Source: Fidelibacterota bacterium
Lineage (GTDB): Bacteria; Fidelibacterota; Marinisomatia; SCGC-AAA003-L08; GCA-2689995
DNA length: 64,000 nt
Assembly (NCBI GenBank): GCA_014381925.1
Contig: JACNKR010000048.1
Coordinates: forward strand, 313-64,312
Reading direction: 5' to 3'
Shown here: piece after piece, positions 51,559 through 56,247 of the stretch
Layout: the number at the start of each line of letters is the position of its first letter
Position numbering within the stretch: the first letter of the stretch is position 1
Notes under the pieces: model-generated
Database searches by the model: none
The model's input: only the letters and a program-made list of their open reading frames with translations
What the model was told of the DNA's origin: nothing
Made by a program: the position numbers and the translations under genes

Positions 51559-52845
51559 TTGTATAGGATAAAATTTATTTTCAAAATACTATTATTTATA
51601 TTTAATGTAATCTTTTTTTCTACTCTTGCTTTTTCTACTGAATTAGATTTTGAAGTTGTGGTGCATAATGAAGGTGCTTCAACAAAAAATCTTATTTTCC
51701 ATACTATGAACAATCAATTCCTCGCGATTTTAGATAGTAATTTAGTTCCATATTGGCAAATTAAGGTTGATGAAATAGGTTTAGATTTTAAAGTAAATCA
51801 AAATAATTTAACTTATTTTCAAAAAGATAGTACTTCTTGGATTGTATTAAATTCAGAAATGCAAGAGGTAGATACTTTAAAATGCACAAACGAACTAAAA
51901 GCTGATTACCATGATATTCAATTATTAGAAAGTGGTGGTTATATTTTACAATCATATCATGATGAAATTATGGATATGTCGCAATATATTTCAAATGGAT
52001 ATACAAATGCGGTTGTAAATGAGTTGGTCATTCAAGAATTTGATGTAAATCATAATTTAATTTTTGAATGGTATGCACATGACCATTTAAATATTGGTGA
52101 TTATTCAACTTTAAATTTATTTCTTGCTGATTTTACCTGGATGCATGGTAATAGTATTGAAATTGATTTTGATGAAAATTTGATTTTATCAAATAGACGA
52201 AGTAGTGAAGCAATTAAAATAGATAGAAATACAGGTGATGTTATTTGGATTTTAGGTGGTCCAATGAGTGATTTTACATTTCTTCATGATTCCTTTAATG
52301 GATTTTCTAAACAACATGATGTGAGAAGATTGCAAAATGGAAATATTTTAATTTTTGATAATGGTACTCAACATACTCCTCAAATATCTCGAATTATTGA
52401 ATATGAGTTAAATATAGACAATATGACTGCTGATTTAATTTGGGAATATAGTCACCCTGAGGAATATGTGGGATTATCGATGGGTAGTGTTCAACGATTA
52501 GAAAATGGAAATACATTAATTAATTGGGGGAATATTTCAAATTCGGGTGCTATCGTTACAGAAGTTAATATGGAAAAAGAAATTGTCATGGAAATTCATT
52601 TTCCAATGGGTAATAATATTTATAAAGTTCGAAAAAATGATTGGCAATTTAATATTGATTTAATGAAAGCTGACTTAAACTTAGATCAAATAATCAATAT
52701 TTTAGATATATTAGCTGTAGTTAATATTATTTTAGATTCCAATTCATCAAGTACTGCTTTTCAATTATTTAAAAGTGATTTAAATAATGATGGAGAAATT
52801 AATATTGCTGATATTATTATAATGATTACACTTATTTTGGAATAG
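51559..52845 (+). CDS. Secreted aryl-sulfate sulfotransferase (ASST)-like protein with C-terminal dockerin-like domain
   Basis: Signal peptide; DYHD, HGNSI, LSNR, QHD, FDNG, GSVQRL.NGNTLI.WG; ADLNLDQIINILD / SDLNNDGEINIAD. Confidence 0.82.
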   Translation: MYRIKFIFKILLFIFNVIFFSTLAFSTELDFEVVVHNEGASTKNLIFHTMNNQFLAILDSNLVPYWQIKVDEIGLDFKVNQNNLTYFQKDSTSWIVLNSEMQEVDTLKCTNELKADYHDIQLLESGGYILQSYHDEIMDMSQYISNGYTNAVVNELVIQEFDVNHNLIFEWYAHDHLNIGDYSTLNLFLADFTWMHGNSIEIDFDENLILSNRRSSEAIKIDRNTGDVIWILGGPMSDFTFLHDSFNGFSKQHDVRRLQNGNILIFDNGTQHTPQISRIIEYELNIDNMTADLIWEYSHPEEYVGLSMGSVQRLENGNTLINWGNISNSGAIVTEVNMEKEIVMEIHFPMGNNIYKVRKNDWQFNIDLMKADLNLDQIINILDILAVVNIILDSNSSSTAFQLFKSDLNNDGEINIADIIIMITLILE

Positions 52846-52911: not shown

Positions 52912-53673
52912 TTAATCCAATTGAATTAATGAATCTGGTTTGATAAAAAACCACTTAATTGAACCTATATTTTTAATTTTATTTAACTTACTTTCAGCAT
53001 CTATAATCAATTTAAAGCTTACCCTTCTTGAACTTTTTTCATCTTCAAATCTTGACTGCCCATCAACATTGTATAAAATTTTACTCGATGAATATCCAAT
53101 TGATGAAAGTATATTACGTGTCCAAAGATCTATTTCCCCAATATTATAAATATTTAAAACATATTTTAATACATTTGAGCTTCTTTTTTGGGATAATTTC
53201 ATATTTTTTAAATATGCTTCCAGCCCTCTTTTTTCCCCATCACCCCAATCACTACTTGTATGACCTTCAATTTGAATAGCACTAATCTGGTTCCTAAATT
53301 GTTCATTTTTTATAATAAAAATATACCTAGGAAAAAATATATCTAAAATATTTTTAAATTGGTCTGAAAGTTCAGCCTTCCCTTTTTTAAATAAAACCTC
53401 TGAACTATTAAATTTAAATGCAAGTGTAGTAGGATCGAAATCTGCTTCCCAATCCTCAAATTCATCGGAAAATTCTTCTTTGATTTCAGAAGCAATATCT
53501 TGCTTGATTAATTGATAATCTATAACAATGTCTTTGGCCGATTCAGCAATTTCACTGGAGTTACTAATATAATTTATAGAAATAAAAAGAAAGATAATTG
53601 TTAAACCAGTCATTACATCAGATACATAAGTCCAATAATCTTCACTTTGTTTTTGCCTTTTGAATTTAGCCAA
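52912..53673 (-). CDS. ZorB/MotB-like protein (TM + OmpA-like peptidoglycan-binding domain), Asp-containing copy
   Basis: YWTYVSDVMTGLTIIFLFI, VLF..G, FFPRY, IEGHTSSDW, NMKLSQKRS, SRRVSF. Confidence 0.85.
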   Translation of the reverse strand: MAKFKRQKQSEDYWTYVSDVMTGLTIIFLFISINYISNSSEIAESAKDIVIDYQLIKQDIASEIKEEFSDEFEDWEADFDPTTLAFKFNSSEVLFKKGKAELSDQFKNILDIFFPRYIFIIKNEQFRNQISAIQIEGHTSSDWGDGEKRGLEAYLKNMKLSQKRSSNVLKYVLNIYNIGEIDLWTRNILSSIGYSSSKILYNVDGQSRFEDEKSSRRVSFKLIIDAESKLNKIKNIGSIKWFFIKPDSLIQLD

Positions 53674-53674
53674 T

Positions 53675-54388
53675 TTAAATATTGGAATCAGGTTTAGATA
53701 TTTGATCTAATCTTAATTCGGCATCTGTCACAATTCTAAATACAACACGTCTGGAAGTGATTTTATCTTCAACGACACGAGGACCTATTTCTATATATTT
53801 TAGTTGACTTGAAGAATATCCAATCGAAGTGATTTTATTTCGTGTCCAAATATCAGTATCTCCAATATCTTCAATTTTCAATACAAATTCTAATACTTTT
53901 GCACTTCTTAATTGAGATAATTCCATATTTTTTATATAAGCAGTTAATCCTGTTGTTTTGCTATCCCACTCACTGCTCGTATGTCCTTCAATCTGTATTG
54001 CATAGATATATTCTCGGAATTTTAAATTTTTTAAAATTTTTAAATATCTTGGAAAAAAATCATTTAATATAGATTTAAATTCGGGAGTAAGTTCTGAGCT
54101 ACCTTTTTTAAATAGCACATCTGGGCTATTAAATTGAAAAGATAGAGTTGATGGATCCACTAAAGCATTCCACATACCCATTTCATTTAGGAATTCAAAT
54201 TTTATAGATTCTATAATTTCCTCTTTTATTTTTTCAAAATTTTCCACAATGTCCTTTGCATCATCATTTTCTAACTTTACACTATGAATATAGGTAATTG
54301 CAATAAATAAGAAAACTACCATTAGCCCAGACATGATTGCCGAAATATGAATAGAATATTCATCATCTTGTTCATGGCGTAAAGTCAT
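53675..54388 (-). CDS. ZorB/MotB-like paralog lacking the conserved TM Asp
   Basis: YSIHISAIMSGLMVVFLFI, VLF..G, FFPRY, IEGHTSSEW, NMELSQLRS, SRRVVF. Confidence 0.85.
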   Translation of the reverse strand: MTLRHEQDDEYSIHISAIMSGLMVVFLFIAITYIHSVKLENDDAKDIVENFEKIKEEIIESIKFEFLNEMGMWNALVDPSTLSFQFNSPDVLFKKGSSELTPEFKSILNDFFPRYLKILKNLKFREYIYAIQIEGHTSSEWDSKTTGLTAYIKNMELSQLRSAKVLEFVLKIEDIGDTDIWTRNKITSIGYSSSQLKYIEIGPRVVEDKITSRRVVFRIVTDAELRLDQISKPDSNI

Positions 54389-55893: not shown

Positions 55894-56247
55894 TTGAAAG
55901 TTGAGTACATGAATAAGGGCCAATGGGGCAAAGTGGTCGCTTTTTTTTCTGTAAGAACAGAAGAAGGATTTATAATAAAAGGCCTAAAACTCATTGAAGG
56001 AATAAATGGAAAATTTGTAGGATTTCCAAGTGAAAAAGGAAAAGATGGTGAATACCGAGATACTGTATTAGCTACAAAAGAGTTAAGAGAAAAGTTAACT
56101 CAATTTGCTATAAAAGAATATGGTGGTGATGTAATGCATAATTCAGGCTATGGAAATAATACACCAAATGATTTTAACAATGAAATGCCAGCTCCACAAT
56201 CAGCACCTGCACCAGCTAAAGCATACGACGATGACATACCTTTTTAA
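55894..56247 (+). CDS. SpoVG-family nucleic-acid-binding protein with SSB-like acidic C-terminal tail
   Basis: F.IKG.KLIEG.NG.FV.FPS.K.KDGEYRD; low-complexity linker; ends YDDDIPF; AGGAG SD with TTG start. Confidence 0.82.
   Translation: MKVEYMNKGQWGKVVAFFSVRTEEGFIIKGLKLIEGINGKFVGFPSEKGKDGEYRDTVLATKELREKLTQFAIKEYGGDVMHNSGYGNNTPNDFNNEMPAPQSAPAPAKAYDDDIPF

Follow-up and report, generated by a model that had tools for sequence, protein, structure and literature searches.

A tandem ZorB operon in Fidelibacterota in which one paralogue lacks the ion-carrying aspartate: a possible heteromeric ZorAB motor

In current models of MotAB-, ExbBD- and ZorAB-type motors, two equivalent aspartates take turns. 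MotAB, PomAB, ExbBD and TolQR belong to the A5B2 architecture class, as would the module described here, and contain B homodimers with two aspartates, whereas one of the two B subunits co-encoded at our locus has none. The GldLM/PorLM motor of type 9 secretion is also a 5:2 assembly, with an inner subunit that is without the canonical aspartate and a charge that lies elsewhere, in a compensating acidic residue of the outer subunit; no new residue of that kind is present in the ZorA helices here. According to the available part of a study of type I Zorya (PMC11946911), the B-subunit aspartate of 5:2 motors is conserved universally and essential to the mechanism, and the exchange of the equivalent residue in ZorB of E. 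coli (D26N) abolishes both defence and effector recruitment. For type II ZorB, Asp21 is named as the critical aspartate in the accessible portion of a second study (PMC11890865).

One A-type gene accompanied by two different B-type genes, the arrangement of our locus, is also that of the AglR5-AglQ-AglS gliding motor of Myxococcus xanthus, for which the available text of one paper gives a predicted 5:1:1 motor with a heterodimeric insert (PMC11761067) and that of another reports that all three genes are needed and that AglQ D28N is inactive (PMC3858216). Since AglR5QS has been predicted to be 5:1:1 (in that same portion of PMC11761067), the idea of a heteromer is not new for the wider family. 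AglR5QS differs from our locus in belonging to the TolR-like branch, in lacking this type of OmpA-like domain, and in having a known output (the Glt/Nfs machinery). For ZorAB the heteromer is new, and a member without the aspartate is unusual. Our search of the literature brought up neither a ZorA-ZorB-ZorB module nor a ZorB lacking the aspartate (“two ZorB” there refers to two subunits of one complex), and nothing on a heteromeric ExbD structure (ExbD1/ExbD2).

Here, we describe a minus-strand trio of genes in the window (the whole stretch of 64,000 nucleotides analysed, from a marine bacterium) that encodes a ZorA-like subunit, a proximal ZorB-like paralogue (B′) and a distal one (B), and that forms a compact operon flanked by spoVG and an arylsulfotransferase/dockerin gene (Table 1). 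The first-pass annotation of this DNA took both B genes for ZorB-family paralogues downstream of a ZorA-like gene, on which the PADLOC matches and the matches to PDB entry 8vvi agree. The latter, the type II ZorA5B2 complex of Sulfuricurvum kujiense, provides the best solved relatives of all three genes by sequence: B′ matches 8vvi_A (type II ZorB) at E 6.1e-38, and the ZorA-like protein matches 8vvi_F at E 4.2e-13 across residues 12-340. Both ZorA proteins, similar in length (378 aa in the solved chain of 8vvi, 407 aa here), combine a membrane core rich in Thr/Ser with a long tail. The ZorB-like copies resemble type II ZorB in having a single transmembrane helix together with an OmpA-like domain, and the W....D motif is kept in the distal copy. 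Our locus differs from type II Zorya in having two ZorB genes rather than one, in the alanine of the proximal copy at the position of Asp21, and in having no ZorE, an HNH nickase, either adjacent or in the genome. It differs from canonical ZorA2 in that the EQFGENFKQLN-type stretch, common to 10 aligned canonical ZorA2 proteins, is absent from the ZorA tail of tandem-ZorB modules, and all three proteins score below the NCBIfam equivalog cutoffs (201.8 and 176 bits for the two ZorB-like copies against a ZorB2 cutoff of 400, and 70.5 bits for the ZorA-like protein against a ZorA2 cutoff of 700).

Table 1. Genes and key codons of the tandem ZorB operon and its surroundings (window positions).
Feature	Position	Strand	Details
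ZorA2-like subunit, 407 aa	54413-55636	minus	PADLOC ZorA2 E 3e-27
B′, proximal ZorB2-like paralogue, 237 aa	53675-54388	minus	PADLOC ZorB2 E 2.7e-76; Pfam OmpA 33.9 bits
Codon 12 of B′	54353-54355	minus	Ser in place of the family Trp
Codon 14 of B′	54347-54349	minus	CAT, His; 3 residues before Ala17
Codon 17 of B′	54338-54340	minus	GCA, Ala; at the universally conserved Asp position
B, distal ZorB2-like paralogue, 253 aa	52912-53673	minus	TTG start; PADLOC ZorB2 E 2.6e-74
Codon 19 of B	53617-53619	minus	GAT, Asp; retained ion-carrying residue
spoVG	55894-56247	plus	operon neighbour
Arylsulfotransferase/dockerin gene	51559-52845	plus	operon neighbour
Two overlapping ORFs, 364 and 408 aa	59989-62254	minus	first ORF with CxxCH-like motifs

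The two paralogues are 50% identical to each other, the N-terminus of B′ being MTLRHEQDDEYSIHISAIMSG. A single base separates the B′ stop from the TTG start of B in the window; in a congeneric genome (G001), whose operon is syntenic with that of the window, both junctions of the operon are TAATG overlaps. The order ZorA, B′, B is held in all five loci with the module (the window, G001, and the metagenome loci L007, L008 and L009). The wider surroundings in the window are housekeeping genes (dnaX, recR, recA and succinate dehydrogenase), and a search for RNA evidence found none, a run labelled as a metatranscriptome (X16) covering only the ends of the stretch.

Two further features of the neighbourhood deserve mention in their own right. 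Dockerins are unusual in the described biology of the phylum, and a C-terminal type I dockerin domain is found in secreted neighbours of the module both in the window and at L007:2112-2909. These two neighbours are unrelated (the arylsulfotransferase in the window, a 265-aa protein in L007) and stand in two different contexts. Elsewhere in the window, the first of the two overlapping ORFs listed last in Table 1 has the motifs CKGCH and CGHCH, which suggests a c-type cytochrome, and a possible beta-helix protein adjoins it.

The ZorA-like protein begins with a membrane core whose helices are rich in Thr/Ser (GILGTFTGIAIGL, AFVSSITGI) and continues into a cytoplasmic tail of ~300 aa. In a comparison of the window's genome (G000) with G001, identity is 84% in the core, 72% in the tip of the tail (residues 251-407) and 45% in the middle of the tail (residues ~96-250), the least conserved part. 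The stretches that hold Thr42/Thr44 and Ser76/Ser77 align, at the level of the region and not of the residue, with the part of EcZorA that holds Thr147 and Ser184. Residues 44 and 79 are Thr (FTG, ITG) in two genomes of the clade with alanine in B′ and Ile and Ala in the Asp/Asp-type ZorA of L008; these extra polar residues lie near the presumed polar ring, and with three sequences compared they may mean nothing.

The loss of the aspartate from the proximal copy, and of the neighbouring tryptophan with it, had been noticed in the first-pass annotation, and both observations hold. B′ reads YSIHISA17IMSG where B reads YWTYVSD19VMTG, with Ser12 in place of the tryptophan, and in the alignment to 8vvi_A Ala17 of B′ falls on Asp21 of type II ZorB. 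The accompanying remark that the GCA codon (54340-54338) lies two changes from an aspartate codon is right for base changes from GAT or GAC, of which one alone is non-synonymous (GAT to GCT). Ala17 is more than chance or a sequencing error. In G001, B′ reads FSIHVSAIMSG (again with GCA) and B reads YWTYVSDVMIG. Codon 17 of B′ is the same in contigs from three other studies; a 1597-base piece (X7) has 0 differing letters, a 372-base piece that covers it (X12) also has 0, and a 500-base piece (X11) has 7, none of them at codon 17. Among the best 120 database matches, 8 clusters have alanine (the window's own cluster and one fragment included), 111 have aspartate and 1 is truncated at the N-terminus. 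The first-pass annotation had asked whether the loss is fixed in orthologues, and it is: all seven further members of the clade, as well as G001, have alanine.

How unusual is this within the family? In a survey of 150 ZorB-family representatives, one for each cluster at 50% identity, the aspartate is aligned in 128, the motif lies in the unaligned N-terminus in 17 more, and the helix is missing in 5. Because none of the 150 has another residue at the aspartate column, an intact helix without the aspartate is seen only in the clade with alanine (hereafter the Ala clade). Single-copy relatives keep the aspartate in 90 of 90 cases and the tryptophan five residues before it in 89 of 90; this tryptophan is kept in 12 of 12 distal rows and lost from 16 of 16 proximal ones. 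Position 14, three residues before the aspartate column, is His in all 7 Ala-clade rows, Phe in all 9 Asp-keeping proximal rows, Tyr in all 12 distal rows and Ser in 84 of the 90 single-copy relatives. The Ala clade and the Asp-keeping proximal clade are separated by 7 fixed differences, 4 of which (at 14, 17, 21 and 33) lie in the 24-residue transmembrane helix, and comparison with the distal and single-copy rows identifies D17A and the histidine at 14 as derived in the Ala clade. We looked for a new acidic residue in B′, in B and in the ZorA helices of the Ala clade and saw none. Hence the suspicion that a nearby acidic residue might stand in for the aspartate does not hold as worded, and what survives of it is the titratable, non-acidic histidine at -3 that was fixed together with the alanine.

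The history of the pair was followed in a maximum-likelihood tree of 50 rows, with 18 of the 90 single-copy matches as the outgroup; six database rows were left out, two of them fragments (P0017, P0022) and four (P0001, P0011, P0020, P0027) standing for proteins of the window or G001 already entered under other names. The tandem-module proteins form one clade (support 100/100). Within it, the distal clade has a support of 100/99 and a stem of 1.04, and the proximal clade a support of 94/88 and a stem of 0.27. Within the proximal clade, the 7 rows of the Ala clade have a moderate support of 89/77 on a stem of 0.027, and the 11 rows of the Asp-keeping clade a support of 91/83. Because B′ and B are thus sister clades (100/100) inside the ZorB2 family, they point to one duplication of ZorB, and because the sister clade has the aspartate in both copies, the duplication is older than the loss. 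As read from these sequences, the order of events is a single duplication and, later, one change from aspartate to alanine in one sublineage.

Tandem ZorB genes occur only in a small clade of Neomarinimicrobiota type. The form that keeps both aspartates was seen with its DNA in L007, L008 and L009, in the order ZorA, B′ (AIFISD), B (YWTYVSD); the surroundings in L008 and L009, between a gene of metallo-beta-lactamase fold and metG, differ from those in the window. Of 80 metagenome loci retrieved with the proximal-clade alignment, a single ZorB is present in 77 and the tandem pair in 3. Within its phylum the module is rare: at E <= 1e-10, 2 of 81 relatives contain it; at E <= 1e-20, 3 of 401 genomes of the phylum gave matches, the third being a different, single ZorAB. 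In the genome G002, of the same genus as the window, the module was not found; its contig diverges and ends shortly past the arylsulfotransferase gene, so that the boundaries of an insertion cannot be drawn. A scan of the genome collection with B′ gave one distant locus alone, in Psychromonas, with a single ZorB and ZorE, and no relatives were found in viral contigs. The locus L087 (G359:C4), of the same phylum, has a different ZorAB, in which ZorA measures 482 aa and the one ZorB is long; the ORF called for this ZorB begins inside the transmembrane helix, the true start being probably an upstream non-standard codon.

How might the two paralogues be assembled? On the basis of the coupling of the genes, the complementary loss of invariant residues and a predicted B/B′ dimer, we regard a ZorA5:B:B′ heteromer as the best reading, if one to which we would give slightly less than an even chance. 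The two copies have lost different family residues: B′ has lost the tryptophan at -5 in 16 of 16 rows, and B has lost the methionine at +6, replaced by threonine in 12 of 12 rows, along with a proline (to serine) and others. Different invariant losses in each paralogue are typical of a homomer that has turned into an obligate heteromer, as with duplicated ring or dimer subunits. The predicted B/B′ dimer reached an ipSAE of 0.79, a mark attained by 116 of 157 solved complexes and by 2 of 215 mismatched pairs, against 0.00 for the best of 3 controls; since the ZorB homodimer has been solved (8vvi), this value shows likeness only and does not separate a heterodimer from homodimers. The prediction may be a memory of a like complex, and any ZorB pair would probably pass. 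The dimer runs have at least 84% of their contacts in common and a partner pLDDT of at least 83, and the predicted contacts involve the helices and the OmpA-like domains. In the model, residues 19, 20, 22, 23, 26, 27 and 30 of the B′ helix contact the partner, from which helical-wheel arithmetic would place positions 14 and 17 outside the partner-facing arc, facing ZorA. At predicted interface positions, fixed differences separate the B′ and B clades (E vs K/N at 167/170, E vs V/I at 49/51 and S vs K/R at 231/234), and these are suggestive only. We do not rely on an argument from charge complementarity for the heterodimer, as the distal positions vary (K/E at 159, K/N at 170).

The B/B′ dimer prediction is equally compatible with separate homodimers, in which A5B2 would be the working motor and A5B′2, being without a carboxylate, would be inert or regulatory and would compete for ZorA or for peptidoglycan sites. 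Such an arrangement would be the homodimeric form of the brake suggested in the first-pass annotation. Canonical ZorB is homodimeric in solved structures (8vvi; PMC11890865, in the portion available), and since neither copy has lost any of the peptidoglycan-binding motif and the transmembrane helix of each is conserved, B′ or B could each fill a ZorA pentamer alone. We nonetheless think this arrangement unlikely: it leaves unexplained both the different family-invariant losses in each copy and their opposite divergence at the predicted interface positions, translationally coupled 1:1 synthesis would be ill suited to adjusting how much of a brake is made, and the sister clade has a pair with the aspartate in both copies, so the pair predates any “dead” copy.

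Whether B′ is also without a role in ion coupling is a separate question, and a histidine relay could be combined with either a heterodimer or homodimers. Here His14 would be the protonatable group of B′, replacing the aspartate, and ion coupling would be kept. All 7 rows of the Ala clade carry the histidine, against 0 of 9 in the closest clade with the aspartate; the changes from Tyr or Phe to His and from Asp to Ala fall on the same short stem (0.027); a helical wheel drawn on the predicted contacts puts position 14 as well as position 17 outside the arc that faces the partner; and a histidine at -3 is tolerated beside the aspartate in 2 of the 90 single-copy relatives. Against this, the family admits several residues at -3 (Ser, Tyr, Phe, His), and the joint fixation of histidine and alanine carries no statistical weight, because it is one event on one branch. 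We know of no 5:2 motor with histidine in place of the aspartate. Moreover, histidine is neutral or positive where aspartate is negative or neutral, which misfits the proposed engagement with the Thr/Ser ring of ZorA (PMC11946911, available part). On balance, a relay through His14 seems improbable.

All readings so far take B′ to be a working protein, which its pattern of conservation supports. The first-pass annotation had noted that the proximal copy keeps a full frame and all OmpA-like motifs, as it does over its 237 aa: the peptidoglycan motif columns of the OmpA-like domain that are invariant in the 90 single-copy relatives are kept in both B′ and B, and all other columns conserved to at least 85% in those relatives are kept in B′, including Y..NM.LSQ.R and SRRV of the OmpA-like domain. 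Purifying selection on the Asp-less copy is likewise borne out. By NG86 on the pair G000 and G001, dN/dS is 0.215 for B′ (dN 0.253, dS 1.18), close to 0.228 for ZorA (dN 0.270, dS 1.19) and 0.145 for B (dN 0.231, dS 1.60), values that are rough and probably overestimates because dS between the two genomes exceeds 1 and is saturated. Conservation in B′ is highest in the transmembrane helix, with a mean pairwise identity in the Ala clade of 0.90 in this segment and 0.76 overall; the corresponding figures are 0.85 and 0.72 in the Asp-keeping proximal clade, and 0.89 and 0.72 in the distal clade. Thus a decaying duplicate without function, which could appeal to the two near-invariant residues gone from B′, is very improbable indeed, and we reject a pseudogene in view of the frame, unbroken in G001 and in each of the 8 clusters of the Ala clade, the dN/dS of ~0.2, like that of the neighbouring genes, the helix, 90% identical within the Ala clade, the remaining family-invariant columns, all retained, and the gene itself, unchanged in contigs of 3 further studies.

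Is the module, then, a Zorya defence system? The earlier assignment to Zorya stands for the ZorA2/ZorB2-like core and fails for the effector, as no ZorE or other effector ORF was seen flanking the operon. The ZorE models PDLC00642 and PDLC00645 gave no match in the 94.87%-complete genome, and ZorE is absent downstream in the tandem loci. Measured against the components of type II Zorya, ZorA is present, the ZorB aspartate is present in B and replaced by alanine in B′, and ZorE is missing. Since ZorE is necessary for type II Zorya defence (PMC11890865, in the accessible text) and is neither linked nor found in the genome, the locus is not a complete type II Zorya. For 23 single-ZorB loci chosen from 78, the gene downstream of ZorB is ZorE2 in 17, ZorC1-like in 1 and without a PADLOC match in 5, these last comprising four polysaccharide-type genes (for an ATP-grasp protein and three hexapeptide transferases) and one with no Pfam match. 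As our locus also makes plain, matches to the ZorB2 and ZorA2 profiles do not by themselves identify a Zorya defence system. The patchy distribution and varied chromosomal contexts of the module bear on phage protection only indirectly.

Among the single-ZorB loci, a subgroup (L014, L016, L027 and L064, and by the length of ZorA also L023, L024, L029 and L030) has a single ZorB2-family gene with a short ZorA-like protein of 313 aa, and has as neighbours, instead of ZorE, genes for sugar-transfer ATP-grasp proteins and hexapeptide acyltransferases. This points to ZorAB-like units that belong to polysaccharide loci and lie outside defence. At L059:2351-3775, the ZorB2-family gene is followed by a ZorC1-like gene (EH signature) and not by ZorE, a mixed layout of type I and type II.

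Returning to the ZorA5:B:B′ heteromer, we propose the following working model. The stand-alone ZorA-ZorB′-ZorB module, with no nuclease effector attached, derives from the ZorAB core of type II Zorya, and a lineage-specific tandem duplication of ZorB gave two specialised paralogues. One B′ and one B would sit together inside the ZorA pentamer (A5:B:B′), a co-assembly for which the stoichiometry, ion use and output are all inferred, and their periplasmic OmpA-like domains would form a peptidoglycan-binding dimer. In the window's clade, the coupling carboxylate would be on B only (Asp19), and B′ would supply a tightly conserved uncharged helix. His14 of B′, presumably on the ZorA-facing side and one turn cytoplasm-ward of position 17, may or may not relay protons. 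With half the carboxylate sites, such a motor would be slower or more tightly gated than a canonical A5B2. It may even not turn at all, because the aspartate is essential in solved systems and the models alternate between two. The duplication itself needs no Asp-less partner, because the sister lineage keeps the aspartate in both copies. Taken as a whole, a rotary unit with a single carboxylate (or an Asp/His hybrid), built as an obligate heterodimer in A5:B:B′ and acting without a nuclease, is a proposal that we consider rather unlikely.

If the proposal is true, the output of the nuclease-free unit would be the motor or its ion flux itself, or would pass through an unlinked partner, and a 5:2-type motor could work, or be usefully gated, with one aspartate. 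The family offers a natural matched series: single-copy ZorB, a tandem pair with Asp/Asp, and a tandem pair with Ala/Asp and a co-fixed histidine, in which a second B subunit has been kept for long by selection, first with the aspartate and then without it. These three natural forms bear on whether one carboxylate is enough, on whether an obligate heterodimer can arise from a homodimeric stator core, and on what role ZorAB has without a nuclease. Thus, the module provides a natural case for asking whether such motors need both aspartates.
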